IMG/VR virus record: IMGVR_UViG_3300025018_000036
Span: 1-43,795 of that record
Reading direction: 5' to 3' (one strand)
DNA: 43,795 nucleotides
From: a virus
A program made the position numbers and the translations under genes. This document shows, piece after piece, positions 2,636 to 43,118 of this stretch (the first letter of the stretch is position 1; the number at the start of each line of letters is the position of its first letter). The notes below the pieces were generated by a model. It saw only the letters and a program-made list of their open reading frames with translations. It was not told where the DNA came from and searched no databases.

Positions 2636-2869
2636 ATGGCGTACCCCGTGTTCGCCGTGTTGGTCTACCGACAGGGCTACCCCTTGCGTCTGCACATCAG
2701 CCCGCGAAGGGCGTTTCGGTGCTGGCTTGAATACCGCCCGAAGCTGGGCCTGTGGGACGTCATGACTCCGGTACGGTACGGGTGGCAAGAGTTCCCAAAG
2801 CCTGCCGAACGCCACACAGATCTGTTCTCTGCTATCAGTGCACTCCGGAGGCTGAATGCTGTCACGTGA
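2636..2869 (+). CDS. Hypothetical protein (77 aa)
   Basis: ATG 2636 follows GGAGG (2626..2630). It lies in the frame of track ORF 2603..2869. No recognisable domain. Confidence 0.45.
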   Translation: MAYPVFAVLVYRQGYPLRLHISPRRAFRCWLEYRPKLGLWDVMTPVRYGWQEFPKPAERHTDLFSAISALRRLNAVT

Positions 2870-4268
2870 AGACCTGCGCAACTACCAACGCAGAGGAGTG
2901 GACTTCTTCAAGTCTATCAAGACACCGGGCCTGTTCCTGGACATGGGCTTGGGCAAGACGATCATCACCCTCACAGCCACGGCAGACCTCCTCAAGGAGC
3001 GCAAGGTGAGCAAGGTGTTGCTCGTGGCACCGTTGCGTCCTGCACAGGGCGTATGGAGGCAGGAGGCCCGCAAGTGGCAGCACACCAAGCACCTGACCTT
3101 CAAGCTCCTAACGGGCAGCGAAGGCAAACGGCTGACAGCCATGAAGAGCAGTGCGCAAATCCACATCATCAACGTGGACAACCTCCGATGGCTGTTGTAC
3201 GTGCTCAAGAGCATGCAGCGAAAGAACGGGTGGCCTTATGACATGCTCATCATTGACGAGTCCAGCATGTTCAAGGCCCCCGGCCGGAAACGGTTCTCCA
3301 CCCTGCGCCACCACTTGCGCAAGTTCGACCGCAGGGCTATCCTAACGGGCACGCCTGCCCCCAAGGGCCTGATTGACATCTGGTCGCAGGTGTACATCCT
3401 TGATCTGGGGCTGCGGCTGGGAGAGCAGGTGCGCCGATACAGGGAGCGCTTCTTTAGCCCGAGTGGGTACATGGGGTACGGGTACGATCTGGATGACGGG
3501 GCGGAGTCCAAGATACTGGGTCTGATAAGCCCGTTGATCCTGTCCATGCGGGCCGAAGACTGGCTGGAGCTGCCCCCAGAGATAGAGCAGACAATCTGGG
3601 TGGACCTGCCCCCAACAGCCCGCAACCTGTACAACAAGATGGAGAAGGAAATGTTCGTGGAGCTAGAGGCAGGCTCCACCGAGGCTGTGTCCGCTGCCAG
3701 TGTGTCTTCCAAGTGCTGGCAGATTGCCAACGGTGCGCTCTTCCTGGACAAGCCCGATGGAACCCGTACGTGGCAGGCAGTGCACGACGCAAAGCTGCAA
3801 GCCCTGCAAGAGATCGTAGAGGGCACGAGCGACAACCTGCTGGTCACGTACTGGTTCAAGCCAGACCTCGCCCGGTTGCGCAGCATGTTTCCAAAGGCCC
3901 CGTGTCTGGTTGACGCCAAGAACGAGCGTCAGCTCAATGCCCTGCAGAACGCATGGAACAACGGTGATCACCGCATCATGTTCGTCCACCCGCAAGGCGG
4001 GGGCCACGGGCTGAACCTGCAAGGTGGCGGAAACACGCTGGTGATGTTCAGTCTGCTGTGGGGGCGTGAGGCATGGGCACAGGTACGGCAGCGCATGGGG
4101 GCGACGCGTCAGTACGGGTTGCGTGACCATGTGAACTACAAATACATCGCCGTCCGTGACACCGTGGATGAGGCCATGCTGACCACCCAACGGCGACGCG
4201 AAGTGGACGAGCGCCGGATGATCAAAACCCTGCGCGACTACCGCGACGCACGGGAGATACTGGCATGA
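2856..4268 (+). CDS. SNF2-family (DEAD/DEAH-like) helicase/ATPase
   Basis: Motif I is LDMGLGKT and motif II is LIIDESS. The C-terminal helicase lobe carries HPQGGGHGLNLQ. Its position next to PolA and VRR-NUC is typical of this replication module. Confidence 0.85.
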   Translation: MLSREDLRNYQRRGVDFFKSIKTPGLFLDMGLGKTIITLTATADLLKERKVSKVLLVAPLRPAQGVWRQEARKWQHTKHLTFKLLTGSEGKRLTAMKSSAQIHIINVDNLRWLLYVLKSMQRKNGWPYDMLIIDESSMFKAPGRKRFSTLRHHLRKFDRRAILTGTPAPKGLIDIWSQVYILDLGLRLGEQVRRYRERFFSPSGYMGYGYDLDDGAESKILGLISPLILSMRAEDWLELPPEIEQTIWVDLPPTARNLYNKMEKEMFVELEAGSTEAVSAASVSSKCWQIANGALFLDKPDGTRTWQAVHDAKLQALQEIVEGTSDNLLVTYWFKPDLARLRSMFPKAPCLVDAKNERQLNALQNAWNNGDHRIMFVHPQGGGHGLNLQGGGNTLVMFSLLWGREAWAQVRQRMGATRQYGLRDHVNYKYIAVRDTVDEAMLTTQRRREVDERRMIKTLRDYRDAREILA

Positions 4269-5013: not shown

Positions 5014-5355
5014 ATGGACAAACCTATTCCAATGATCCTGTACTGCCCCAACTGCGGTGAGCAGCACGTTGACGCACCTGACACGAACCCGTGCCGTCGG
5101 TCATGTCGGTACGCGGTGGACGTGTGCATGCCTGAGGCAACGTGTGCGGGTGCGTGCCAGTACATGCAAGAAGGGTCACCTAGATGGACAAACCCCCCGC
5201 ACCGTTCGCACAAGTGCGCGACCTGTGGCTGCATTTGGCGTCCGGCTGACGTACCCACTACGGGCGTCGCAGATATCCAGACGTCGGGCAAGTCTGACAC
5301 GTGGCCCGTGTACCCTCAAGAGATTTCAGCCGCACCGGCTGTTCACAAACCATGA
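5014..5355 (+). CDS. Cys/His-rich zinc-ribbon protein (113 aa)
   Basis: Carries CPNCG...C..SC...C..C...C and PPHRSHKCATCGCIWRP. ATG 5014 follows CTGGAG. Confidence 0.6.
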   Translation: MDKPIPMILYCPNCGEQHVDAPDTNPCRRSCRYAVDVCMPEATCAGACQYMQEGSPRWTNPPHRSHKCATCGCIWRPADVPTTGVADIQTSGKSDTWPVYPQEISAAPAVHKP

Positions 5356-5939
5356 GCCATATCCTTGTCTACGTGCACGGCACCAACGGCAGCGGAAAGT
5401 CCACCCTCGCCCGTGGGGTGCTGGCTGCGGCTGGGGGCGTCGCAGAGTACGTGCCCGTGAAGTCGGGAAAACAGGGCAAGGCTGGCTGGACGGACACGCC
5501 CCGAGGGGTAGCTCTCCTCGGCTCCTACCATCGGGCCTGCGGGGGCGTGGATGGCTTTAGCCCGTACGCCCACGTACACGAGGTGATGCAGGGCCACGCC
5601 GAGTACGAGGATACCCGCGTGTTCGCTGAGGGCCTGATGACACCGGGGGTGGACACCTGCACCAAGTTCGCCGGGTACTTTGAGCGCACCGTGTTCATCG
5701 CGCTGTCCACGCCGATTGAGCAGTGCATCGCCAACGTACGCAGCCGCCGGAAACGGGTGGGCAACACCAAGCCATACACCCCGGAGAAGCTGATCTCCAA
5801 ACATGCCTCGGCCCTGCGCTGGGCTGACCGGCTGGCTGCGGCTGGCCTTGAGACGTACAAGATGCCGTACCGCGAGGCATACCATTTTTCCTTGGAGTTG
5901 CTGGGCCTCCCTCTGCCCAGTGTTGATGAACTACTGTGA
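5352..5939 (+). CDS. P-loop kinase (nucleotide or 5-hmdU-DNA kinase candidate)
   Basis: Walker A is VHGTNGSGKST at the N-terminus. Size (~195 aa) is typical of dNMP/polynucleotide-kinase-like P-loop proteins. ATGA overlap with the preceding gene. Confidence 0.65.
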   Translation: MSHILVYVHGTNGSGKSTLARGVLAAAGGVAEYVPVKSGKQGKAGWTDTPRGVALLGSYHRACGGVDGFSPYAHVHEVMQGHAEYEDTRVFAEGLMTPGVDTCTKFAGYFERTVFIALSTPIEQCIANVRSRRKRVGNTKPYTPEKLISKHASALRWADRLAAAGLETYKMPYREAYHFSLELLGLPLPSVDELL

Positions 5940-5950
5940 AAGAAACCACC

Positions 5951-7078
5951 ATGAAAGACGCGTTTGATTCCGTCCGTGTTGCCACGGGATACGGTGTGAC
6001 TGTTGCCAACGTGAACGAGGCCTTGCCGTTGGGCTTGCAGCTTGTGAAGGATGTGGGCGTGCCCTTTGTGTCACGGGGTATCCCCACGCTGGAAGTACCC
6101 GGACCCGTGTCCACCATCTATCACCGCCCGTGGGAGCGTGTGCTGTTCGACCCCGTGCGTGACGCTAACCCATTCTTCCACCTGATGGAAAGCCTGTGGA
6201 TACTGGGTGGCAGCAACGAGGTTGAATTGCCAAGCCACTTCCTAGGCAACATCACCGGCTTCAGTGACAACGGCAAGACATTCCACGGTGCGTACGGCTA
6301 CCGGCTGCGTAGTCAGGGCTTCGGCGACCAGTTGACCATCACCGCCCAGATGCTGCGCGAACGCCCCGACACGCGACAGGCAGTGATGGCTATCTGGAAT
6401 CCAGCACTGGACATGGACACCCGCAGCAAGGACATCCCCTGCAACGACATGATCATGTTTGGCATTCGTGAAGGCAAGCTGAACATGACCGTGTGCAACC
6501 GCAGCAACGATGTGATCTGGGGTGCGTACGGTGCCAACGCAGTCCAGTTCAGCATGATCCACGAGTGGATGGCCTCTGCGGCTGGGGTCACGATGGGGTA
6601 CTACGTGCAACAGTCCAACAGCTATCACGTGTATCCGTCCAACCCGTTCTGGCAGGCGTTTCTGGATGGCGAGCATGCACCGGGCCATGTGCACAACCCG
6701 TACATATCTCACCACTACCCGCTGACCGTGCCGTTGGTGGGGCCACACGACACGCCCGAGGCCTTCCTCGAGGACTGTGAGGGCTTGTGTGAGCAGGCGC
6801 ACAAGGGCACCATCGGGCGCACCAGTGGGAATTCCGTGCGATGGCGAACCCAGTACTTCCGTCAAGTGGTGGAACCCATGTTGCAGGCGTACAACCTGTA
6901 CAAGAAGGGTCTGGCAACGACCGCCCTGTTCCGCCTGCAAGACGTTATCGCAACGGACTGGCGTATGGCCTGCATGCAGTGGGTGCAGCGTCGCATAGAC
7001 AAGGCTGTGGTCAAGGCTGACGCGGCTGGTGCTGTGGCACTGGCGAAGGTGCAACACGCTGGAGACAACCTGAAATGA
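5951..7078 (+). CDS. Thymidylate synthase superfamily enzyme (divergent ThyA; candidate dUMP hydroxymethylase)
   Basis: Aligns by eye to E. coli ThyA: ESLWILGGSNE / ELLWFLQGDTN, GAYGYRLR / PVYGKQWR, DTRQAVMAIWNP / DSRRIIVSAWN, IPCN / APCH (catalytic Cys), NRSNDVIWG..GAN / QRSCDVFLG.PFN. Start is ATG 5951. A GTG at 5936 (GTGA overlap) is an alternative start. Confidence 0.8.
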   Translation: MKDAFDSVRVATGYGVTVANVNEALPLGLQLVKDVGVPFVSRGIPTLEVPGPVSTIYHRPWERVLFDPVRDANPFFHLMESLWILGGSNEVELPSHFLGNITGFSDNGKTFHGAYGYRLRSQGFGDQLTITAQMLRERPDTRQAVMAIWNPALDMDTRSKDIPCNDMIMFGIREGKLNMTVCNRSNDVIWGAYGANAVQFSMIHEWMASAAGVTMGYYVQQSNSYHVYPSNPFWQAFLDGEHAPGHVHNPYISHHYPLTVPLVGPHDTPEAFLEDCEGLCEQAHKGTIGRTSGNSVRWRTQYFRQVVEPMLQAYNLYKKGLATTALFRLQDVIATDWRMACMQWVQRRIDKAVVKADAAGAVALAKVQHAGDNLK

Positions 7079-7632
7079 CCCCCATTGTTGAGAACACCTT
7101 GTACCGTGACGCGGCTGACGTTGCCCGGTATCACACCAAGCGCACCATCCGTCAGCAGACTGTGGGGCAGCACAGCTTTAACATGCTAATGCTCGTGCAG
7201 CAAGTGATCCCCGACTGTCGGAAGGAAGTGTTGCTGGCGATCATGCACCACGACCTCCCCGAGCTCAAGACCGGCGACATACCGGGGCCGATCAAGCGTG
7301 TGCATCCCAGCCTCGGCCCGTTGCTGGACCAGATCGAGGAGGGTTTGTACCCCTTGTTCAAACCCTTCGGCCTGCGTGCCGACGAGGAGAAGCTGATCAA
7401 GTGGGCAGACCGGATGGAAGGGTGTCTGTGGTGTATGGAAGAAGTGCGCATGGGGAACACCTTCTGCAAGAACACTGCCGAGAAGTACATGACGTGGATA
7501 CTGGAGTCCGCTGTCACCGGTGAACTGTACGGGGGCCTGACAGCCACCCACGCATTCACTCACGACGTGATCACGTACATGCGATCACACAATATGCGTG
7601 CAACCGCACGCCCACAACACGAAAGGGACTGA
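7075..7632 (+). CDS. HD-domain phosphohydrolase, YfbR-like 5'-deoxynucleotidase
   Basis: HSFNMLMLV...IMHHDLPELKTGDIPGPIK matches the H...HD...D metal-binding pattern of YfbR-type dNMP nucleotidases. ATGA overlap with the upstream gene. Confidence 0.75.
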   Translation: MTPIVENTLYRDAADVARYHTKRTIRQQTVGQHSFNMLMLVQQVIPDCRKEVLLAIMHHDLPELKTGDIPGPIKRVHPSLGPLLDQIEEGLYPLFKPFGLRADEEKLIKWADRMEGCLWCMEEVRMGNTFCKNTAEKYMTWILESAVTGELYGGLTATHAFTHDVITYMRSHNMRATARPQHERD

Positions 7633-7633
7633 C

Positions 7634-8128
7634 ATGAGCGCGAACGAAACACAGGTCGGGGGCGACCACTACAAACGAGCCGGAGACATGCAGCACTGGG
7701 ACATGGCTGCGCACTATCAGCTCGGGTACTTCGAGGGGCAGGCGTCCAAGTACCTGACCCGGCACCGCAAGAAGCACGGGCTGACAGACATGCGGAAAGG
7801 TCTGCACATGCTGGAGAAGCTGTACGAGGTGAAGTGCGCGTGGTGCCGTGATGGTGGTGTCCCGTGGCTCATCGATAGCGACTCCACCGCCACTCGCCAT
7901 ATCGCCGGACGGCAGTGGGGCGGGTACACCTGGACCCTGTACCAAAAGGCCAACGACCTTACAGAAGACGAAGTGAACCTTGTCCGGGCTATCGCTGAGT
8001 GGAAGACGATGCCAGAGCTACTGCGCATCATCGAACGGTTCCGTGTGCTGATGTACACCACGTACCCGGCACCAGACGCCGAGGAACCCGGACCGGGATA
8101 CGTCAATCAGGACGGGGGTGCAGCATGA
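7634..8128 (+). CDS. DUF3310 (SaV-like) family protein
   Basis: GGDHYK...QHWDM...LGYFEGQASKYLTRHRKK is the characteristic DUF3310 N-terminal signature. Confidence 0.7.
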   Translation: MSANETQVGGDHYKRAGDMQHWDMAAHYQLGYFEGQASKYLTRHRKKHGLTDMRKGLHMLEKLYEVKCAWCRDGGVPWLIDSDSTATRHIAGRQWGGYTWTLYQKANDLTEDEVNLVRAIAEWKTMPELLRIIERFRVLMYTTYPAPDAEEPGPGYVNQDGGAA

Positions 8129-8988
8129 CCGCCCGTGTGGGTGCTTTCGTGGCCTTCTGTGTGGCACGGCATCAGGTGTACGTCAACCGTGTGGTGCGGG
8201 GTCTGTCCAAGCCCTGGACCGGGGACCCCATCTTGCAGGCGTATCGCTTCTGCAACGTATACCGCGAACTGGACACGGTGACCCAGTGGATACGGCAGAA
8301 GTGGTCACCCAAGCTGGGTGGACATCCGGACGCATGGTTCTGGATGGTGGTGGCACGGCTGGTAAATCACCCGACCACCCTCGCGGCTGCGGGGTTCGAC
8401 CTGCGCCGTGAGTGGGAGGGGTACAACGACACCAACTTCTTCACCATCATGGAAACCCGCAAGGCCCAAGGTGTGAAGGCGTTTGGCAGTGCGTACATCG
8501 TGTCCACCAACGGGCACACCATGGAGAAGCACCTGTACCTGGACGACCATGTGCTGACCCCCCTGTGGCGGAACAAGCACGCATACCGGCCAACACCCAC
8601 GGACACCCTCGCCAGCTTCCACAAGAGGCTAATCACCGCGAATGGTCTGGGGTCCTTCATGGCTGCGCAAGTGGTGGCAGACACCAAGAACACCCACGGT
8701 GACCACCTGCACACGGCTGAGGACTGGTGGACGTGGGCAGCACCGGGTCCGGGCAGTATGCGGGGCCTGTCCCGTGTGTTGTTCCAGGACAAGGACCACA
8801 GGTTCCGGGACGCGCAGTTTCTCGTAGACCTCAATGAACTGCAGGATTACGTGAACGCAGCCTTCGTGAAGAGGGGGTGGCAGAAACTGTGCGCACAGGA
8901 CGTCCAGAACTGCCTGTGCGAGTTCGACAAGTACGAGCGTGTACGGCTGGGGCAGGGCAAGCCTCGCCAACGGTACGCGGGGGTCTAG
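8125..8988 (+). CDS. Putative DNA base hypermodification protein (5-hmdU DNA kinase helical-domain / aGPT-pyrophosphorylase-like family)
   Basis: The N-terminal signature PWTGDPILQAYRFCNVYRELDTVTQW resembles the conserved W-x-D-P-I-x4-[KR]-F-[TC]-N-V-[FY]-R-x-L-D block I associate with this all-alpha family. ATGA overlap with DUF3310. The family call is from memory only. Confidence 0.5.
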   Translation: MTARVGAFVAFCVARHQVYVNRVVRGLSKPWTGDPILQAYRFCNVYRELDTVTQWIRQKWSPKLGGHPDAWFWMVVARLVNHPTTLAAAGFDLRREWEGYNDTNFFTIMETRKAQGVKAFGSAYIVSTNGHTMEKHLYLDDHVLTPLWRNKHAYRPTPTDTLASFHKRLITANGLGSFMAAQVVADTKNTHGDHLHTAEDWWTWAAPGPGSMRGLSRVLFQDKDHRFRDAQFLVDLNELQDYVNAAFVKRGWQKLCAQDVQNCLCEFDKYERVRLGQGKPRQRYAGV

Positions 8989-9700: not shown

Positions 9701-9782
9701 TTCTTTTGATGGCTTCCTTAGAGTTCAGTCATGGTCAGGCAATAACGCAGGGCCAGCAACCAAACCACCAAGGAACCACATC

Positions 9783-10154
9783 ATGTCCAAAGCTACCAAA
9801 ACCCAAATCGCCAACACCGTCGCAGCCGTGGCAGCAAAGCAACCCACCGTCGTGGAAGACGAGGCAGCCGCCCTGGACTACGCCTACGACACCGCAGTCG
9901 GCCGCAGCCGCCCAGTCGTTGCCATCAACGAGGAAGGTGAACTGGTCGTATGCTGCAAGTCCACCGCCAAGAAGCACGGCTGGGAGCTCCAGGGCAAGCT
10001 GTACGCCCGTGTCCGCACCAGCAAGGCCAAAGCCTCCGCTCCGGCCGCAGCACCCGCCCCAGTGGCACCGGCTGCACCCAAGGCCAGCAAGGGCAAGAAA
10101 GCCAACTTTGCCAAGGACCTCGGCGACGAAGTGGCCCGCCTCCTCGGCATGTAA
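9783..10154 (+). CDS. Hypothetical protein (123 aa) with Ala/Pro/Lys-rich C-terminal region
   Basis: ATG 9783 follows CACCAAGGAACCACATC. It lies in the frame of track ORF 9696..10154. Confidence 0.6.
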   Translation: MSKATKTQIANTVAAVAAKQPTVVEDEAAALDYAYDTAVGRSRPVVAINEEGELVVCCKSTAKKHGWELQGKLYARVRTSKAKASAPAAAPAPVAPAAPKASKGKKANFAKDLGDEVARLLGM

Positions 10155-10203
10155 AGTGCAGCCAGACAGCCCCTGCCCAGTGCGGGGCCTGTAGGCTGCA
10201 CTT
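10154..10203 (+). other. Composite GC-rich stem-loop in the intergenic region
   Basis: The outer 10-bp stem is AAGTGCAGCC / GGCTGCACTT. The inner stem is GCCCC / GGGGC. No T-tract follows. Confidence 0.5.
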
Positions 10204-10230
10204 CGCAAGCAACCACCAAGGAGAACCATC

Positions 10231-10554
10231 ATGCGCAAGCAAGACAAAGCACTGGCTGACAAGTGCCAGCCGCACGGTCGGCTCGTGGGCTTCCCACCTG
10301 AGACCAGCCGCAACCCTGAGAACCGCCACGGCACCCGGACCGCCCGTGCGTACCTGCTCCACCACATCAAAGGCAACTGCCGCAACTGCTCCCGACTCGT
10401 CGCGGCGACCCCTCGCCAGTACAAGAAGGTGCGCAAGTGGATGGACGCCACATCTGACCTGAAAGCTGTGCCGAAAGGCTGGGGGCCGACAATGCGGGCT
10501 ATCCTGCGTGACAACCTCGCGAACTGGTACGACTTCGACGACATCCCTTTCTGA
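10231..10554 (+). CDS. Small Cys/His protein ending in an SSB C-terminal-tip motif (DFDDIPF)
   Basis: ATG 10231 follows CACCAAGGAGAACCATC. The last codons read aac tgg tac gac ttc gac gac atc cct ttc tga = NWYDFDDIPF*. Contains KCQPHG...HHIKGNCRNC. Confidence 0.65.
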   Translation: MRKQDKALADKCQPHGRLVGFPPETSRNPENRHGTRTARAYLLHHIKGNCRNCSRLVAATPRQYKKVRKWMDATSDLKAVPKGWGPTMRAILRDNLANWYDFDDIPF

Positions 10555-10563
10555 AAGAACCAC

Positions 10564-10803
10564 ATGCTCTCACAAGACAAGACCCTCGCCGTGCTCAAAG
10601 CTGGCGTCGCCGTACCTCGCAAGGCACGCAAGGCCACCGAGGTCACCGTGTACCTGGAGGCCGGCCGATACACGGTGCAGGTGAACCATAAGACCGTCGC
10701 CAGTGCTGCGGGGAATGAGGTCGCTGCCCGCAGGGACGCCCGCGAACGTGCCGACAAGCTGTCCAAGCTGTTGCGCATGCCTGTCACCGTTACTGTTTAC
10801 TAG
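10564..10803 (+). CDS. Hypothetical protein (79 aa)
   Basis: ATG 10564 follows AAAGAACCAC. No recognisable domain. Confidence 0.55.
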   Translation: MLSQDKTLAVLKAGVAVPRKARKATEVTVYLEAGRYTVQVNHKTVASAAGNEVAARRDARERADKLSKLLRMPVTVTVY

Positions 10804-35146: not shown

Positions 35147-37480
35147 TCACTTTTTGCGCTCTTGTACGAGTAATTTTGCATATGCCCTGCCGTCCGTTGT
35201 CAGCCTGCACATGCGAGCACCCCGTGGGCCATCTTCCATTTCCACGTAGTCATGTGAGTCGGCCCAGTCCATAATCTCTTGCATGTTGCGCTTGTGCACA
35301 TGCGCCCCGACAGAGAGCTGTGTGCTGGTGGCAAAGTCGTCCAGGCTGAGCATGTACATCAGCACCTTGTTTGCGTACGTGCGCATTACCGTTTCGGCTT
35401 GCTCGGCTTTGGCCTCTTGCCGTGCTGCAGCTATCTGCCCATCACCCAACGGTACGATTTCCGGCCGGGGGATGAGGAGTGGCCCCCTGCGCTCAAACAC
35501 CTGCTGTTCCATAGGTGCCGAGTAGTTGTGCTTCACGTGCTGCGTGACCACGTACCGGCTGGACGTTTCCCGGCTGGGGGGTAGCCCGTACATGGGGGCG
35601 TCCTTGGCTGGCATGGACATGCACACGGTCACAGAGCGGGCGTTGTCCGCAAAGCTGGACGCACCCCTCAGCGCTCCTTGGTTAATCTCGCCTAGGGACA
35701 CCCACGACGCCGCCTTGGACATATGGTGCAGCACCACCACAGCACAATCCCCTTGCTTTGCTATGGCCCCGAGCATCTGCATGTATGCGGCCATGTCGGC
35801 GATGTTGTTCTCTTCTAGCTGGTGGGTGTACACAGCAGGGTCAAGGACTAGGAGCTTGATGCCCGCGTGCCGTATCAGGCCAATGAGCCAGTCCACCCGG
35901 TCGGTGCGCTCGGCCGCACTGTACCGATCCACCTTGTTTGCCAGCACCCACGCAAGGGCCTCTTCATCGGCTGCGTACATATGCAGGTTCTTGCGCACGC
36001 TGCCCCGTATGTCGTGCAACAGATCAAGCATCCCATCGTCCTGCTCAGTGAGGGCCTTGGTCAGCGCATGTACGCGTCCATGTAGCTCTTGCTTATCATC
36101 CTCATACGACACGTACAGGCTTCGCAGTGGCTCGTTAACTGTGAAGCCCGCCCAGCCCTTGCCCAGTGCAGCGTGAACCAGTAGATGGAGCATAAGCATG
36201 GACTTGGAGACGCCACCTGGACCCGCCACGACCGTGACCTTGCCCACCGGAGCGAACTGGGGGATTGCCCACTCCCTAGGGACAGGTGCACTATCAAGCA
36301 TGCGACCGAGATCTGCCTTGCCCAGAAACGTGTCGTAGTCATCCAGTACGCCTGCCTCAGTCTGCTGTTCGGGAGTAAGGTGTTTGTTCTCAGTGAGCCA
36401 CCGGACGAGCCCGGCGAAGGTGAGATGAGGAACACCATCCACATCAGGAGCAGTGTCAAAGCACTTAACAGCCGGACGAGGATTCCCATCGAAGTGGGCC
36501 TCGTAGTACACAGTCTGAGTTTCATTTTCTGCCTCGTGTTGGTCCAGGTGCGGGCACGTGATGAAGTGCATGCCCTTGTGTTTGGGATTGGGTTGCAGGT
36601 ACAGGCCAGCCGCCTTCAGGGCGTGCAGGATGGGGTCTGTCTTGACGTCGTCGGGTATGTCGGCGGGGGCCTTGCCTCGGGGCGCGTCAAACTGGGTCAC
36701 TGGTGCCCATGCCTTGCCCGTGGCGTACCCCTCGTAGAAGGTGCCCCCCTTGAGCCGGGTGGGCAGGTACATCGGCTGCGACAGCACCCACGACTCGGGC
36801 CTGCACCAGTCGTCCAGTTCTAGGGTGCGTGCTGCCTTGATGGTGCTGGCCTTGAGCGCTGCCTGCATGTGGTCTGCATCGCCCTCTATGGCCTTGCCCA
36901 ACGGCAGGACTACACGGTAACGGGGCCTGTCCGGGGTGTGGCTGATGCTGGTGTACACCCAGCCCTCGCCCTTGAGTGCCTTCAGCCGTTTGAGCACTTC
37001 CTCGGGTGGGTCAGGCTGTTCGCCCGTGGGGTCGTCTTGCTCGATGTCCAGCGTGAGCAGGGTGCGCGACGTTACGTTACGGTCGTCACGTTTGCCCTCT
37101 AGCGTACCGCCGACGAAGTACGGCAAGTGTTTCTTGACGTTGCTGCGTTCCTTCTTGGGACTGTTGTGGTACGTGATGGAGGGCACGTCTAGCTGGAAGG
37201 GCTTGCGGTAGGCCTCACGCAGGTCGGCAAGGGTGGCTTCCTCATCAGACGCTAGAACGCGCGTGTTGAGAACGCCACCTTGCGTGACGTAGCTGTAGGG
37301 GTTGTTCATTGATAGGTGTCTCTGTTCCGTGGTGGGGTTGCTATTGTGCCCCCGAGCGTACCCGCGTACATGGGGTCCCCCGATACCATCGGTATCCATG
37401 CAGGGCTGGGCGTGCTGGGGTACAGTGCCTCCTGTGCCCCCGCCACCCTCCAGACCCCTCACTGGCAAGTCTGTTTCCAT
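35147..37480 (-). CDS. Primase-helicase: AEP-type primase domain fused to a RepA/DnaB-like (AAA_25) P-loop helicase
   Basis: AEP motifs are LTLDIEQ (D-x-E) and YTSISH (S-x-H). Walker A is VVAGPGGVSKS, followed by LYVSYEDD. ATG 37480 is preceded by CAAGGAACCACC, the conserved early RBS motif. Confidence 0.8.
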   Translation of the reverse strand: METDLPVRGLEGGGGTGGTVPQHAQPCMDTDGIGGPHVRGYARGHNSNPTTEQRHLSMNNPYSYVTQGGVLNTRVLASDEEATLADLREAYRKPFQLDVPSITYHNSPKKERSNVKKHLPYFVGGTLEGKRDDRNVTSRTLLTLDIEQDDPTGEQPDPPEEVLKRLKALKGEGWVYTSISHTPDRPRYRVVLPLGKAIEGDADHMQAALKASTIKAARTLELDDWCRPESWVLSQPMYLPTRLKGGTFYEGYATGKAWAPVTQFDAPRGKAPADIPDDVKTDPILHALKAAGLYLQPNPKHKGMHFITCPHLDQHEAENETQTVYYEAHFDGNPRPAVKCFDTAPDVDGVPHLTFAGLVRWLTENKHLTPEQQTEAGVLDDYDTFLGKADLGRMLDSAPVPREWAIPQFAPVGKVTVVAGPGGVSKSMLMLHLLVHAALGKGWAGFTVNEPLRSLYVSYEDDKQELHGRVHALTKALTEQDDGMLDLLHDIRGSVRKNLHMYAADEEALAWVLANKVDRYSAAERTDRVDWLIGLIRHAGIKLLVLDPAVYTHQLEENNIADMAAYMQMLGAIAKQGDCAVVVLHHMSKAASWVSLGEINQGALRGASSFADNARSVTVCMSMPAKDAPMYGLPPSRETSSRYVVTQHVKHNYSAPMEQQVFERRGPLLIPRPEIVPLGDGQIAAARQEAKAEQAETVMRTYANKVLMYMLSLDDFATSTQLSVGAHVHKRNMQEIMDWADSHDYVEMEDGPRGARMCRLTTDGRAYAKLLVQERKK

Positions 37481-39198: not shown

Positions 39199-39230
39199 TA
39201 CACTAGACCACGCGCCACCATGCGTCTACC

Positions 39231-39244
39231 GCCCCTTCGGGGGC
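39231..39244 (+). other. GC stem with UUCG tetraloop, second copy of the 17-nt element
   Basis: CCGCCCCTTCGGGGGCA at 39229..39245. Confidence 0.7.
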
Positions 39245-39270
39245 ATTCTGTTATCACCAAGGAAACCACC

Positions 39271-40272
39271 ATGACCAAGATATTCGAATTCCCCAAGTAC
39301 GAGCAGCACCCCCTCGCGTCCAAGCTGATGCCGGGTGGCATGGACGAGGCTGAGTTCACCGCCTTCTGTGAGGACGTGGAGCAGCGTGGCGTCATCATGC
39401 CAATCACCCTGTACGAGGGCAAGGTGCTGGATGGCTGGCACCGTTACCGGGCAGCGCAACGCACGGAGACCTCCTTCAAGGAGCTGGAGTACAAGGGTAA
39501 GGACCCCGCAGGCTACATCGCCAGCGTGAATGTGCTCCGGCGCAAGCTGGGGTCGCTGCAACGGGCACTCGTGGGCGTACGCCTGCACCGTGACCACAAC
39601 CTGACCCAGCGCGACGTCTGCCGCAAGCTGGGCATCAGCAACGAGGTCGTGAACCTTGTGATCCGGGCGGTGGACAGCAAGAACGCAAAGCTGATCAAGC
39701 GCATCGAGTCTGACACCGACTTCACCCGTGGCATGCTGCGCGATGAGCTGGAAGACCTTGGGTTGTTGCGCCAGAAGGCGGTGGAGGAGGCTCCCCGTGG
39801 TCCGACCAGTGTGTTCGACTATGCGGGCAAGGCCCCCGTGGACGACACCGACGCCATTCTGGGCAACTCGCCCGATACCGATGGTATCACGTACGAGGAC
39901 GACGACACTGGCCCCGTGGGTAACGCGAAGCCCCTGCCCGACACGGGTAAGAAGGCAGCACACCCAGAACGCAGGGCAAAGGAAACCGCAGCCCAACGCC
40001 TGTCGGAGCAGTTCAAGGCCCTCATGGAGGACGAGAAGGTATCCTTCCTGCAGATGATCTGGCCCGAGGCCCGTGGTCTGGCGGCTGGTGCGGGCCTCAA
40101 GTACAAGCCCGAGACGGACGCAACAGACCCCCGCCCCCATGCCAAGTTGGTTCCGCAACCCAAGCCCGAGGCTACTACCCCCGAGGACGCCTTGCTTGCG
40201 ACTGCCACAGCCCCGTCTAAGCCGACTGGCAAGGCAAAGAAGCCCACAGCCAAGAAGGCGGCTGCGAAATGA
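39271..40272 (+). CDS. ParB-like nuclease-domain protein with HTH and a disordered basic tail
   Basis: ITLYEGKVLDGWHRYRAA matches the ParB N-terminal DG.HR motif. The HTH is LTQRDVCRKLGISNEVV. The tail is TGKAKKPTAKKAAAK. ATG follows CAAGGAAACCACC. Confidence 0.75.
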   Translation: MTKIFEFPKYEQHPLASKLMPGGMDEAEFTAFCEDVEQRGVIMPITLYEGKVLDGWHRYRAAQRTETSFKELEYKGKDPAGYIASVNVLRRKLGSLQRALVGVRLHRDHNLTQRDVCRKLGISNEVVNLVIRAVDSKNAKLIKRIESDTDFTRGMLRDELEDLGLLRQKAVEEAPRGPTSVFDYAGKAPVDDTDAILGNSPDTDGITYEDDDTGPVGNAKPLPDTGKKAAHPERRAKETAAQRLSEQFKALMEDEKVSFLQMIWPEARGLAAGAGLKYKPETDATDPRPHAKLVPQPKPEATTPEDALLATATAPSKPTGKAKKPTAKKAAAK

Positions 40273-40526: not shown

Positions 40527-41120
40527 ATGGAGATTGATATGGATGCAAAGAAAGTCGCTGAGCAGTTTGACATCATCGCGGAGGCATGCGGTGCGCTCGC
40601 TGGCATGTTTCGGGGTAGTGGCGGGGGTGCGGGAAGTACAGCAGCAGATGGAAAGGCTGCGAAACCTGTACGCGGAAAGCCTGCCCCCGCCCCCACCGAG
40701 GACGAAGTCGACATCGACACGGTCCGCGAGGCACTCAAGGAGCTGATGGAACTGCGGGGCAAGGAAGTGATGGTGCAGGCACTCGAGTCCGTTGGGGCTG
40801 GCAAGCTGGCCGACGTGGACGAAAGCCAGTACCAAGAGCTCCTGGACAAGGTGGCCGAGCTCAAGGAAGAACCGGCCGACCCGCCCGAGCCCACCAAGAC
40901 CACCAAGCCCAGTCGTCGCAGCAAGGCCAAAGCAGGCCCCACGCTGGATCAGGTCACGGACGCAGCCAAAGCCCTGATCGACGCTGACAAACCCGCGTAT
41001 GTGAAGCTCACCAAGAAGCTGGGCAAGCCTAGTGAGATGGACGAGGCCGACTACGCAGCCGCCATCGAAGCGTACGAGGCCGCGATGCCTGCCGATGGAG
41101 GCGACGACGACCTGCTGTAA
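40527..41120 (+). CDS. Acidic helical protein (197 aa) ending in GGDDDLL
   Basis: ATG 40527. Asp/Glu/Lys/Ala-rich. Its C-terminal tip is shared with the DUF2815 SSB. Confidence 0.6.
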   Translation: MEIDMDAKKVAEQFDIIAEACGALAGMFRGSGGGAGSTAADGKAAKPVRGKPAPAPTEDEVDIDTVREALKELMELRGKEVMVQALESVGAGKLADVDESQYQELLDKVAELKEEPADPPEPTKTTKPSRRSKAKAGPTLDQVTDAAKALIDADKPAYVKLTKKLGKPSEMDEADYAAAIEAYEAAMPADGGDDDLL

Positions 41121-41184: not shown

Positions 41185-41289
41185 ATGACCCCCACCGAGC
41201 AAGACTGCTTCTTCCGCTTCAAGATGCGCATCATCCCTCTGAACATCAAGGTGTTCATCGCCCGGAACGAGTACAAGGGCATCAAGTGA
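41185..41289 (+). CDS. Possible micro-ORF (34 aa) translationally coupled to the nuclease gene
   Basis: GGAG lies 6 nt upstream of ATG 41185. Translation is MTPTEQDCFFRFKMRIIPLNIKVFIARNEYKGIK. Its TGA overlaps the GTG start at 41286. Confidence 0.3.
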   Translation: MTPTEQDCFFRFKMRIIPLNIKVFIARNEYKGIK

Positions 41290-42446
41290 GGCACTCAGTC
41301 CTCAGCCCCAGTAGCTCTCACCGTTGGCTGGTGTGTCCAGGCAGCGTAGAGGCCAACAGGGGCAAGAAGCACACCGACAACTTCTACAGCCTAGAGGGCA
41401 CCACTGCCCACGCCCTGCTGGAGGTATGCCTGCGGCTGGGGGCAGACCCCTTCCACCTTGTGGGCAGGCTGTTGGAGCATGGGCACATGCCCATAGACGA
41501 GGCCATGGCAGACGGGGTGGGCCACGCCCTGGACTACGTCACCGCGTACCTTGCCAACAACCCCAACGCCCGCGTCCTCCCTGAGCAGGAAGTGCACTAT
41601 GGCAGGCAGATTGGGATTGACGAGGACGAAGACCCCGACGACACCATGGCTTTCGGCACCAGTGACTTGATCCTTGACAACTATCCGAAGGAAGTGGTGT
41701 CGTTGGATTACAAGCACGGGGTCGGCATACCCGTTAGCGTCAAGGAGAACACTCAGCTGCGAATGTACCTGCTGGGCATGCGACAAGAGCGTGGCCGATA
41801 CCAACGGTATCGCAGCGTCGTGGTGCAGCCCCGCCTTCCCCGGCGGAAGCCCGTGCAAGAGGCAGTGATGCGCGACGCCGAGCTTACCGGATGGGTCAAC
41901 CGTGTGGTGATCCCTGTGGTGCCTGTGGCCCTGCGCAAGAACGCCCCGCGTGTGGCTGGTGAGCACTGCCGATACTGTGCGGCCGATGGCAACTGTCGCG
42001 CACAGCTTGAGAAGGTGCAGCAACTCGCAGCGGATGAGTTCAAGACTGCCGACGACCCAAAGTCCCTGACCCCAGCGGAGATCGCAAAGCTGTTAGACGT
42101 GCTCGGAACCCTTACCAGCATCGCCGACGCAGTTAAGAAACGGGCTGTTGCAGCCGTACACGCTGGGGTCAAGATACCGGGCTATCAACAGGCATGGACA
42201 GCGTCCAGGCGCATCTGGAAGGACGAGGAGGAGGCCAACGTCTTGCTCGAACGGCTGGGCCTGCAACCCAAGGAGCGCTTCAAGGTGGAGCTCCTAAGCC
42301 CCGCACAGGCGGAGGACGCCCTCAAGGGGAAGAAGCTGTGGCCCAAGAAGCAACGGGGCGTCAAGGAGCAGATGACCCCACTGGATGAGGCACTGGCCTT
42401 CACGGATGGCAACCCCACCATAGAAAAGGCACACCCCAAGGCATAA
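41286..42446 (+). CDS. DUF2800 PD-(D/E)XK (Cas4/RecB-like) nuclease with Cys cluster
   Basis: The N-terminus is LSPSSSHRWLVCPGS, the core is SLDYKHG, and the C-terminal cluster is CRYCAADGNC (C-x2-C-x5-C). GTG start. Confidence 0.8.
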   Translation: MRHSVLSPSSSHRWLVCPGSVEANRGKKHTDNFYSLEGTTAHALLEVCLRLGADPFHLVGRLLEHGHMPIDEAMADGVGHALDYVTAYLANNPNARVLPEQEVHYGRQIGIDEDEDPDDTMAFGTSDLILDNYPKEVVSLDYKHGVGIPVSVKENTQLRMYLLGMRQERGRYQRYRSVVVQPRLPRRKPVQEAVMRDAELTGWVNRVVIPVVPVALRKNAPRVAGEHCRYCAADGNCRAQLEKVQQLAADEFKTADDPKSLTPAEIAKLLDVLGTLTSIADAVKKRAVAAVHAGVKIPGYQQAWTASRRIWKDEEEANVLLERLGLQPKERFKVELLSPAQAEDALKGKKLWPKKQRGVKEQMTPLDEALAFTDGNPTIEKAHPKA

Positions 42447-42503
42447 TGGATCCTGCGCCATCGCGCGCAACTGTGTTCAATCTGTAACATCATGGAGTCT
42501 TCA

Positions 42504-43118
42504 ATGGCAACCAAGCAAAAAGCCGTCCGGCTGTATTCCCCCAAAGGCGTCGCCGCCTATGTGCACCTGCACACCCCCCGTGCCCGTACCGATGCCAAAG
42601 GCCAGCCCAAGGGCGACCCGAAGTACGGGCTGGCCTTGTTCTTCAAGAAAGGCACTGACCTGTCCGAGATGGAAGAGGTCGCGGAAAAGAAACTCCGCGA
42701 AGCCTTTGGCCCCAAAGCCATGGACCTTGTCCGCAAGGGCAAGATCAACTGGCCCTTTGCCGACACCGACGATATGGAGGACCCCGAGCCGCCGTTTGAC
42801 AAGCCCGGCACCGTGGTCAACTTCAAGAAGGCAGACCGCCCCGGTATCGTTGACGCCGACGCCGAGCCCATCATGGAGAAGTCTGACGTCTACTCCGGCA
42901 TGATTGCCCGCGTGTCCTGCCGTTGCTTCACGTACGACAACGAGTCCAAGGGTGTGTCCTTTGCACTGGTAAACGTGCAGAAGCTGGGCGACGGTGAGCG
43001 CATGTCCGGCGACCCCGATGCCGAGAGCGACTTCGCTGCGGCTGACAAGGGTGGTTCCCGTGGCAAGCCCGCAGGCCGGTCGCGTCGTAATACCGAAGAC
43101 GACGACGATCTGCTGTAA
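42504..43118 (+). CDS. DUF2815 ssDNA-binding protein (T7 gp2.5-like) ending in EDDDDLL
   Basis: DPKYGLALFF...DVYSGMIARVSCRCFTYDNESKGVSFALVNVQKLGDGE fits the DUF2815 pattern. ATG 42504 has GGAG 6 nt upstream. ATG 42492 is an alternative start. Confidence 0.75.
   Translation: MATKQKAVRLYSPKGVAAYVHLHTPRARTDAKGQPKGDPKYGLALFFKKGTDLSEMEEVAEKKLREAFGPKAMDLVRKGKINWPFADTDDMEDPEPPFDKPGTVVNFKKADRPGIVDADAEPIMEKSDVYSGMIARVSCRCFTYDNESKGVSFALVNVQKLGDGERMSGDPDAESDFAAADKGGSRGKPAGRSRRNTEDDDDLL

Follow-up and report, generated by a model that had tools for sequence, protein, structure and literature searches.

Genome maintenance in bacteria turns on a central hub peptide, the C-terminal tip of SSB (SSB-Ct), which is also an antibacterial target and docks into pockets on partners that include chi, PriA, RecQ, RecO, ExoI, RecJ, Ung, RNase HI and DnaG. 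Proteobacterial SSBs end in DDDIPF or DDIPF, the terminus of the E. coli protein being DFDDDIPF. In phage T7, acidic tails ending in D-F are carried by both the gp4 helicase-primase and the gp2.5 SSB, and both dock on the gp5 DNA polymerase. Short-linear-motif mimicry is well documented in eukaryotic viruses. The hexapeptide DDDIPF is the documented SSB interaction motif (PMC5872125, PMC10018359), and the DTDF peptide of T7 gp4 has been seen bound to gp5 in PDB 6P7E (PMC12339929). Some phage SSBs also have host-like tips, for example Bas52_0087, which has two OB folds and ends in FDDDIPF, and the HK620 SSB, with a proposed interface to host factors such as SbcB/ExoI; a preprint on DRT10 links ExoI/SbcB and SSB-tip-bearing phage proteins to the activation of defence (10.64898/2026.04.29.721553).

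The protein considered here is encoded in a stretch of viral DNA of 43,795 nucleotides, the whole of IMG/VR record IMGVR_UViG_3300025018_000036 and hereafter ‘the window’. An ATG-initiated ORF at 10231-10554 (+ strand, stop codon included) specifies 107 amino acids whose C-terminal residues are ...NLANWYDFDDIPF*, ending NWYDFDDIPF, just as an earlier note on this DNA had read them. The ATG is preceded, at a distance of 7 nt, by the Shine-Dalgarno sequence AAGGAG (10218-10223, +), which is identical in a 98%-identical contig (L001). The ORF is real, with a strong ribosome-binding site, and the detection of homologues by phmmer and profile searches shows that the frame is coding. It lies directly downstream of thymidine-hypermodification genes, in an early/middle operon. 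In the interval that separates the ribosome-binding site from the stop codon of the preceding gene, the RNA can fold into a hairpin (10150-10207, +) of -37.5 kcal/mol (z = -4.05), a stability that none of 200 shuffles equalled; the hairpin is kept in L001 despite divergence of the upstream coding sequence and is possibly a processing, stability or attenuation element. Promoter or terminator signals flanking the ORF on the coding strand did not exceed shuffle expectation.

The closest precedent for this arrangement is the T7 gp4/gp2.5 pair, together with the cyanophage P-SSP7 proteins (tails ...PDDDF on gp2.5 and ...PSTDF on gp4), in which a non-SSB replisome protein likewise bears an acidic, Phe-terminated, SSB-type tail. 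However, the T7 carrier is a helicase, and the tail that its two proteins have in common is a phage code aimed at the phage polymerase; here a small protein of no assigned function displays a bacterial code, and the phage SSB ends in DDLL. Bas52_0087 and the HK620 SSB resemble it in displaying a host SSB tip on a phage protein, but they bind ssDNA through OB folds, while the 107-aa protein has neither an OB fold nor an SSB-family signal. The use of a host docking peptide on unrelated proteins, in non-sister lineages and in 31 phage clusters (see below), is what likens it to viral motif mimicry.

With the bacterial SSB-Ct itself, the likeness is one of position as well as of sequence. The tip occupies the extreme C-terminus (YDFDDIPF codons at 10528-10551, +), with acidic residues followed by I-P-F and a free carboxylate, and it is predicted to be disordered, residues 101-107 being DFDDIPF and pLDDT falling below 50 over 101/102-107 in two AlphaFold models. 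The earlier note called it a copy of the bacterial tip; this holds in that a genome scan showed exactly DFDDIPF at the end of at least 67 canonical SSBs from bacteria, but not for E. coli, whose tip has one Asp more. The remainder of the protein is unlike an SSB. A bacterial SSB is an OB-fold tetramer with a long Gly/Pro/Gln-rich linker before the tip, while the tip here directly follows the last predicted helix (H86-104), with no low-complexity linker, on a helical non-OB body of about 100 aa. Thus, of the features that define PF00436 proteins, the acidic [IL]PF tip is present and the OB-fold domain and long linker are not.

Searches for a familiar identity for the body returned little. The ORF matched no Pfam (E <= 0.01) or PHROG family, PF00436 and the other SSB, OB and gp2.5 families included, and gave no PDB sequence match at E <= 10. 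None of 13 family members matched Pfam at E <= 1, and the family is absent from PHROGs too. Both AlphaFold predictions, made for the monomer, are all-helical with no beta-barrel, the model being of moderate confidence (pLDDT 65), and a fold search with these models gave no match below E = 1. On these searches and predicted models, the protein is not an SSB, in agreement with the earlier note, and a second SSB with an OB fold was rejected on the same grounds. The note's suggestion of a small zinc module fared less well. The first Cys/His pair is spaced C12-x2-H15 rather than C-x3-H, and C12, C50 and C53 are conserved just in the 98%-identical homologue P0001, the family members having one to three Cys at non-aligned positions. 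A zinc module was rejected, since the Cys/His residues are not conserved in homologues.

The body does belong to a family, albeit a rare and unnamed one of small basic phage proteins. A phmmer search of 1.84 billion representatives gave homologues at E values of 1.2e-7 to 9.4e-4, and a profile search with the family gave 2e-39 to 1e-11; the homologues are P0001-P0012. There are about 12 distinct sequences of 87-107 aa, with a core of about 75 aa, found solely on phage or metagenome contigs; scans of IMG/VR and JGI metagenomes recovered solely members already known, and a tblastn search of 50,697 phage records gave no homologue from a cultured phage. The 107-aa protein shares both the overall similarity and the invariant motif PENRxGT(K/R)T, which in the window is PENRHGT at residues 29-35 (10315-10335, +). 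The invariant positions in the alignment are P23, P29, E30, N31, R32, G34, T35, Y41, A59, G85 and R89. Every one of the 12 members is strongly basic (pI 9.8-10.8, with invariant Arg/Lys), combining a body charge of +9 to +14 with a tail charge of -1 to -3; the 107-aa protein itself has a pI of 10.2, a body of +14 and a tail of -3. A short acidic and aromatic tail of some kind is present in every member. The family body therefore has its own conserved function, in a core-plus-tail logic like that of SSB and gp2.5.

The particular tail YDFDDIPF is found in just two lineages of the family, the window with P0001 and P0010 with P0011. These share 37-39% identity in the body but all eight residues of the tail, and they were sisters in none of 200 bootstrap trees. 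Either, then, it arose twice (or was swapped in), or strong constraint has preserved it. Given the amino-acid composition of this phage, a protein would end in DFDDIPF with a probability of 4.6e-10, which becomes 3e-8 for the set of approximately 70 genes, and even the loose tip [DE][DE][IL]PF has a chance of only 2e-4 per genome. These sequence comparisons place the tip under selection. It is nevertheless dispensable for the core function of the family, since nine of the 12 members lack it, as does the orthologue in L010, a close relative of this phage, where the tail is of the QYGY type.

The phage has an SSB of its own, with a different tail, as the earlier note had observed. The gene at 42492-43118 (+) encodes a gp2.5/Enc34-type protein (PF10991, E 1.4e-26; phrog_112, E 2.5e-36) ending in EDDDDLL; the 107-aa ORF, by contrast, has none of the signatures of that group (PF21265, PF10991, phrog_112). 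A 197-aa phage protein (40527-41120, +) has the same code, ending in GGDDDLL. Both tails are conserved in relatives, the SSB ending in DDVDDLL in L010 and in DEDIDDLL in the cultured Rhodoferax phage P26218 (gp09), and the L010 homologue of the 197-aa protein in EEDDLL. When the window is translated in all six frames, just three of its ORFs of 50 aa or more have a tail that is acidic and closes on a hydrophobic residue, namely the 107-aa ORF and the two with DDDLL. No other ORF of the window has an [IL]PF tail; a second [ILVM]PF tail at the same locus was seen at three of 90 loci, the window not being among them. The occurrence of DDLL on both proteins, and its retention in L010 and P26218, indicates that DFDDIPF is not the internal code of this phage group. 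The difference between the tip and the phage SSB's tail favours a role directed at the host, as had been suspected, and on the sequence evidence the most likely targets of DFDDIPF are the SSB-binding proteins of the host. We assume here that it matches the host's own SSB tip.

All the sequences of the family come from replication modules. In each of seven distinct phage backgrounds the gene is surrounded by genes of replication and recombination, among them PolA/SNF2, Pol III alpha/SNF2, PD-(D/E)XK with AAA_24 and DUF669, NAD-ligase, and a DUF5906 primase. The window phage has a nearly complete replisome, comprising PolA (130-2211), an AAA_25 helicase (35147-37480), the SSB, a DUF2800 exonuclease (41286-42446), an SNF2 helicase (2856-4268) and VRR-NUC. 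The PolA is 67% identical to that of Rhodoferax phage P26218, the closest cultured relative, which was also the sole megablast match to the window, at the helicase, and the PolA identity would suit a Comamonadaceae-like host. Scanning 185,579 bacterial genomes with the profile turned up no family member, and the window contains no tRNAs, so we infer the host from this relationship.

The best explanation of the 107-aa protein, to which we give a probability of about 0.42, is a host-directed adaptor or ‘mini-hub’. The protein would be a small accessory component of the phage DNA-replication module, whose helical, basic body (approximately residues 23-100, including PENRxGT(K/R)T) would bind nucleic acid or a replisome component; binding to DNA is suggested by its charge. 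The body would thereby sit on the phage DNA or replisome, on DNA coated by the gp2.5-like SSB. The DDLL tail of that SSB would presumably be unable to recruit host factors, and it is there that the DFDDIPF tip may capture an SSB-Ct-binding protein of the host, or several. The outcome would probably be recruitment and not sequestration. The distribution of the tip in IMG/VR, mostly on DNA-bound fork proteins, points to a recruitment logic and not to a free decoy. A counterpoint is that, with the phage replisome nearly complete, the host factor needed is not obvious; another is that sequestration fits the same sequence facts.

Under sequestration, free tips would act as competitive inhibitors, occupying the SSB-Ct pockets of ExoI, RecJ, RecQ or Ung, or of an SSB-dependent defence, so that phage intermediates (hypermodified, hmdU-derived DNA) were protected or host repair and restart disabled. 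The exact bacterial tip under selection, the small size of the protein and its early/middle position immediately after the hypermodification genes would all suit such a decoy, as would the connection of ExoI/SbcB and tip-bearing phage proteins with defence (10.64898/2026.04.29.721553) and the presence of the tip on some bacterial Abi_C, TIR and AAA_5 proteins, which suggests its use in phage-host conflict. However, a pure decoy has no need of a body that is conserved, strongly basic and marked by an invariant motif, nor would that body be expected to persist in the majority of family members that lack an SSB-like tip. In addition, a monomer with a single tip must compete with the abundant, tetravalent host SSB, and phage tips elsewhere are mostly on DNA-bound replisome proteins. 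We therefore regard a decoy as somewhat unlikely. A docking role within the phage, in which a basic patch of the phage polymerase or helicase receives the acidic tail with its terminal Phe and the resemblance to the host is incidental or historical, draws on the T7 and P-SSP7 D-F ends, present on both SSB and primase-helicase, and on the binding of gp4 DTDF to gp5 (PMC12339929). It also draws on the IMG/VR gp4-like primase-helicases and SF2 helicases that end in DFDDIPF, and on the acidic aromatic tails of all members of the family. It seems decidedly unlikely here, given that the internal code of this group, on the SSB and a second protein, is DDLL (L010, P26218), that no second ORF of the window has an [IL]PF tail, and that in L010 a tip-less orthologue coexists with the same set of PolA, SSB and helicase. 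A T7-style code common to the neighbours of the tip-less relatives was also looked for and rejected, none being found among the genes at five family-bearing loci.

Two further readings concern the protein as a nucleic-acid binder and the tail as an accident of descent. A basic core with an acidic C-terminal tail is a hallmark used for predicting SSBs such as DUF669 (PMC4889955), and the body charge of all members and the location of the gene in replication modules accord with a second, minimal SSB or nucleic-acid binder of non-OB type, whose acidic tip gates the basic surface and recruits partners; 11 of the tip-bearing phage clusters match various SSB families. On the other hand, the phage already has its gp2.5-like SSB, the prediction is helical and without a beta-barrel, a protein of 87-107 aa with a core of about 75 is small for a cooperative SSB, and no homology points to this reading; we regard it as highly unlikely. 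As for a tail that descends neutrally from an acidic aromatic ancestor and has no function related to SSB, the tails of tip-less homologues are indeed related (DYGEYxDxxF; QDLDDGYYGHP, with its DLDDGYY, in P0006), so that a few substitutions and an earlier stop could yield DFDDIPF. Yet the low chance of that ending, the full identity of eight residues between non-sister lineages and the exact peptide on 31 unrelated phage protein clusters make a neutral tail scarcely credible.

The earlier note had proposed a search of other phages for non-OB proteins with this ending, and such proteins exist. In IMG/VR, the exact ending DFDDIPF occurs on 84 ORFs of 50 aa or longer. They fall into 31 unrelated clusters, of which 18 are uncharacterised families and others comprise SF2 helicases or T7 gp4-like primase-helicases; the 11 with SSB matches belong to several distinct families. 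The note was also unaware of any description of the strategy. In the open-access literature we found no account of a protein other than an SSB that bears an SSB-Ct tip, or of the use of this tip in phage mimicry, although the implied uniqueness is tempered by these clusters and by the gp4 and gp2.5 tails of T7 and P-SSP7. The phage clusters and the Abi_C, TIR and AAA_5 carriers suggest a general principle and not a single curiosity. A tentative generalization, to which we give a little under even odds, is that the SSB tip can be transferred as a docking peptide, and that phages have time and again attached it to unrelated proteins so as to gain access to the SSB interactome of the host or obstruct it; certain abortive-infection, TIR and AAA_5 proteins of bacteria seem to bear it too. 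The 107-aa protein, a basic non-OB mini-hub with a tip acquired independently in two lineages and set beside a DDLL code, would then be its cleanest case. If phages do display SSB-Ct on non-SSB scaffolds, these would be natural, evolved ligands of or competitors for the pockets of chi, ExoI, RecQ and PriA, among others, and ready tools with which to probe or inhibit SSB-Ct interactions. Linear-motif mimicry, by recruitment or sequestration of host proteins, would form a layer of takeover or counter-defence, and an acidic ...IPF tail could no longer be taken as a safe indication of an SSB in annotation.

A conserved downstream partner gene was considered for the 107-aa ORF and rejected, the 79-aa ORF of the window and the 65-aa ORF of L002 not being similar. 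At the nucleotide level, where a trace of the tail's movement by recent recombination was looked for, 23 of the 24 nt of the tail are identical between the window and L002, and the flanks are unrelated; this is a weak guide to such movement. The tail codons of both are all C-ending, as is favoured in these genomes of approximately 60% GC.

The open reading frame at 10231-10554 (+) starts with ATG, has a Shine-Dalgarno sequence (AAGGAG) 7 nt on its 5' side and encodes a 107-aa product, MRKQDKALADKCQPHGRLVGFPPETSRNPENRHGTRTARAYLLHHIKGNCRNCSRLVAATPRQYKKVRKWMDATSDLKAVPKGWGPTMRAILRDNLANWYDFDDIPF*. Long ORFs also occur on the opposite strand (e.g. 9735-10787), the usual by-product of ~60% GC, and it is the existence of homologues that identifies the + frame as coding. 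The SSB-type ending DFDDIPF pointed out in the earlier note is confirmed by reading of the ORF, by these homologues and by chance expectation: with the amino-acid composition of this phage, the probability of a protein ending in DFDDIPF is 4.6e-10, and the looser ending [DE][DE][IL]PF is expected 2e-4 times per 70 genes. The E. coli SSB end has one Asp more (DFDDDIPF), but DFDDIPF itself terminates at least 67 canonical bacterial SSBs, counted in a scan of bacterial genomes that was not a random sample. The stop codon of the upstream gene and the ribosome-binding site of the ORF are separated by a very stable RNA hairpin (10150-10207; -37.5 kcal/mol, z = -4.05) that has no U-tract. L001, another contig with the gene, retains the hairpin even though the upstream gene loses similarity abruptly at its 3' end, immediately ahead of the structure, and this marks a mosaic junction.

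The protein has no sequence match in Pfam, PHROG or PDB. AlphaFold models of moderate confidence only (mean pLDDT 57 from the single sequence and 65 from a 13-sequence alignment) place helices at residues 38-49, 53-57, 61-73 and 86-104 and leave both termini disordered, including residues 101/102-107; neither contains a beta-barrel, and Foldseek gave no match below E = 1 in PDB or BFVD. The lack of family and fold matches and the helical models thus indicate that the protein is not an OB-fold SSB, as had been proposed from the sequence. The small zinc module proposed from a Cys/His set can be ruled out, since the Cys residues are not conserved in the family; the first pair is also C-x2-H rather than C-x3-H. 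The family itself is small. Exhaustive phmmer comparison with 1.84 billion representatives returned only five proteins, and a profile run over 5.8 billion proteins raised the total to 12 distinct members of 87-107 aa, all from metagenomic or phage contigs, with none in 185,579 bacterial genomes or 50,697 GenBank phages. A PENRxGT(K/R)T motif is invariant and basic residues are conserved too. In every member the pI lies at 9.8-10.8, and a body charged +9 to +14 is followed by a tail charged -1 to -3.

Nine family members carry acidic, aromatic, non-SSB tails (DYGEYADGLAGGW, DYGEHADGYFGHP, QDLDDGYYGHP, GDHLESASYF, GESLDHNFY and others), and YDFDDIPF ends two lineages, the window protein with its 98% identical homologue P0001, and P0010/P0011. 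The bodies of these two lineages are only 37-39% identical, and the window protein is nearer to the tip-less P0006 (57%) and P0008 (52%). Neighbour-joining trees of the body are weakly resolved in other respects for so tiny a family (12 sequences), but none of 200 bootstrap replicates grouped the tip-bearing lineages as a clade. The tip therefore either arose twice (or was swapped in) or has been lost repeatedly; under both histories its eight residues stayed the same as the rest of the protein diverged. The tails DLDDGYY in P0006 and DFDQYSY in P0012 suggest an acidic, aromatic ancestral tail, from which DFDDIPF would be reachable in a few steps. The tail DNA of the window and of contig L002 is identical at 23/24 nt, but this says nothing about recent transfer because the flanks are unrelated and every codon is of the C-ending kind preferred in these GC-rich genomes.

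The window is a phage genome of ~43.8 kb and ~60% GC with early genes on the + strand and structural and lysis genes on the - strand; it contains no tRNAs. Genes for PolA (130-2211), a VRR-NUC protein (2133-2495), an SNF2-type helicase (2856-4268), a ParB-like protein (39220-40272), a DUF2800 PD-(D/E)XK exonuclease (41286-42446), a gp2.5/Enc34-type SSB (42492-43118) and an AAA_25 helicase (35147-37480, -) are present. At 5301-8988 lies a thymidine-hypermodification set: a P-loop 5-hmdU DNA kinase-like gene, a thymidylate-synthase-like gene that probably encodes a dUMP hydroxymethylase, a gene for an HD/YfbR-like nucleotidase, and the helical domain HMUDK_hel. The phage DNA probably carries modified thymine. 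A freshwater betaproteobacterium is the likely host, because the nearest cultured relative is Rhodoferax phage P26218, whose PolA is syntenic and 67% identical.

The tip-encoding gene is the third from last in a rightward operon, just ahead of the convergent lysis genes, and across seven different phage backgrounds the family gene is part of a replication or recombination module. In the window and L001 the gene is 3' of the PolA, SNF2 and hypermodification genes; in other contigs it precedes ParB, exonuclease, SSB and PolA (L010), adjoins a DUF5906 primase (L002), lies near NAD-ligase, HAD_SAK_2 and gyrase-like genes (L006), directly follows Pol III alpha and SNF2 ahead of DUF932 (L228), lies near DUF932 and NAD-ligase (L229), or is 3' of PD-(D/E)XK, AAA_24 and DUF669 (L230). 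No conserved adjacent partner gene was found and, in five family loci, no tail code common to the family gene and its neighbours. Three otherwise dissimilar backgrounds have a DUF932 gene close to the family gene (L228 7307-8323, L229 3813-4784, L002 19455-20267), and the two may be functionally associated. The SNF2-type helicase immediately 5' of family member P0004 (L228 5276-6874) ends in a weak [IL]PF-like tail, GDGRELLPF.

Among ORFs of 50 aa or more across the whole window, just three have an acidic tail that closes on a hydrophobic residue: the one ending in DFDDIPF, the gp2.5-like SSB, which ends in EDDDDLL and bears out the suggestion that the phage has its own SSB with a different tail, and a 197-aa protein (40527-41120) ending in GGDDDLL. 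The DDLL tail recurs in the syntenic contig L010, on the SSB (8026-8655; DDVDDLL) and on a 200-aa protein (5927-6529; EEDDLL), and the family member of that contig, located elsewhere in the early region, is the tip-less P0008 (...GQYGY). The SSB homologue of P26218 (4737-5342 in its genome) ends in DEDIDDLL. To judge from these endings, DDLL looks like an internal code of this phage group, similar to the D-F ending that gp2.5 and gp4 have in common in T7 and in the cultured P-SSP7 (gp4 ...STDF, gp2.5 ...DDDF); DFDDIPF is a second, bacterial code. DDLL is carried by both the SSB and the ~200-aa protein of unknown function, and by analogy with T7 this may reflect a shared docking site on another phage protein, e.g. 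PolA.

The earlier note had proposed looking in other phages for non-OB proteins with such a tip, and an IMG/VR survey for back-translated DFDDIPF plus a stop codon, exact heptapeptide only, was positive. The 89 matching stretches gave 86 in-frame ORF ends; 84 of these ORFs reach 50 aa and, with tails removed, they fell into 31 BLAST clusters. Both libraries having been run on all but the small singleton clusters L052, L063, L065 and L088 and small clusters 10 and 12, 11 clusters (37 ORFs) match SSB families (PF00436, gp2.5/Enc34-like, phrog_9002, 743, 18154, 4932 and 44), one of them, cluster 7 (5 ORFs), by a borderline gp2.5-like match (E = 0.001); two (16 ORFs) are non-SSB enzymes, namely SF2/ResIII-Helicase_C helicases (9 ORFs) and Toprim + DnaB_C primase-helicases of T7 gp4 type (7 ORFs); and 18 (31 ORFs) have no assignable function, including several 63-140-aa proteins and the present family. 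Loci of these two helicase types, all from uncultured phages, include L019, L031, L037, L060 and L067 (540-548 aa) and L043, L059, L069, L077, L084, L085 and L101 (558-681 aa). Among the matches listed, phmmer matched the E. coli SSB OB domain to 10/86 viral tip ORFs vs 67/119 bacterial ones, with many of the remaining bacterial ORFs resembling cyanobacterial SSB variants or truncated calls. The survey thus points to the SSB tip as a portable module in phage proteomes, of which the present ORF would be one instance.

The family combines a basic, helical, non-OB body encoded in replication modules with, in two non-sister lineages, the exact bacterial SSB tip, under constraint at a disordered extreme C-terminus, and the phage SSB bears a separate internal code. 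PMC5872125 and PMC10018359 describe the SSB-Ct hexapeptide DDDIPF as the element through which many genome-maintenance proteins are bound, and we infer that the tip binds the same host pockets. The two codes provide the main argument that it is aimed at host SSB-Ct-binding proteins and not at the phage polymerase. The reading we prefer, at a probability of about 0.42, is that the protein is an adaptor or mini-hub: its body would bind phage DNA or the phage replisome where the DNA is coated by a DDLL-tailed SSB unable to recruit host factors, and its tip would offer a point of attachment to at least one SSB-interacting protein of the host.

A role as free decoy or as competitor for nucleases, helicases or defence components of the host would account for the tip equally well, but fits less well with the conserved basic body and poorly with the other tip carriers being mostly DNA-bound fork proteins, and is rather unlikely. 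Docking on the phage's own polymerase has a precedent in T7, where a passage in PMC12339929 names the polymerase as partner of the gp4 and gp2.5 tails; here the DDLL code counts against it, as does the orthologue without a tip in L010, and it is improbable. That the protein is itself a minimal non-OB SSB is more doubtful still, and a neutral tail is very improbable.

Phage SSBs with host-like tips (e.g. Bas52_0087) and the shared gp4/gp2.5 tail of T7 are already known, and the acidic tail is used as an SSB hallmark (PMC4889955). In the open-access literature we found no description of a bacterial SSB-Ct on a non-OB protein, of such a decoy or adaptor, or of tip carriers of this breadth. The single gene is of modest interest; it becomes a directly testable and fairly surprising lead through the convergent gain of the tip, the argument from two codes and the range of carriers.

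Another small non-SSB type ending in DFDDIPF is found in a Thauera sp. MAG (L137, 102 aa) and in IMG/VR (L063, 108 aa, truncated); it has no Pfam match, and the N-termini look similar (...EDFISIRQLVALI... and ...SEFISLRKLITRI...). The tip also ends non-SSB proteins with defence-type domains on bacterial MAG contigs (L130, L134, L142, 270 aa; L194, 323 aa; L221, 405 aa; L211, 267 aa), the domains being Abi_C (E 1e-12), AbiJ_NTD5 + TIR_2 (E 9e-28, 4e-15) and an AAA_5 McrB-like ATPase. Anti-phage systems may use the SSB tip too, for example as bait or for localisation to SSB partners.
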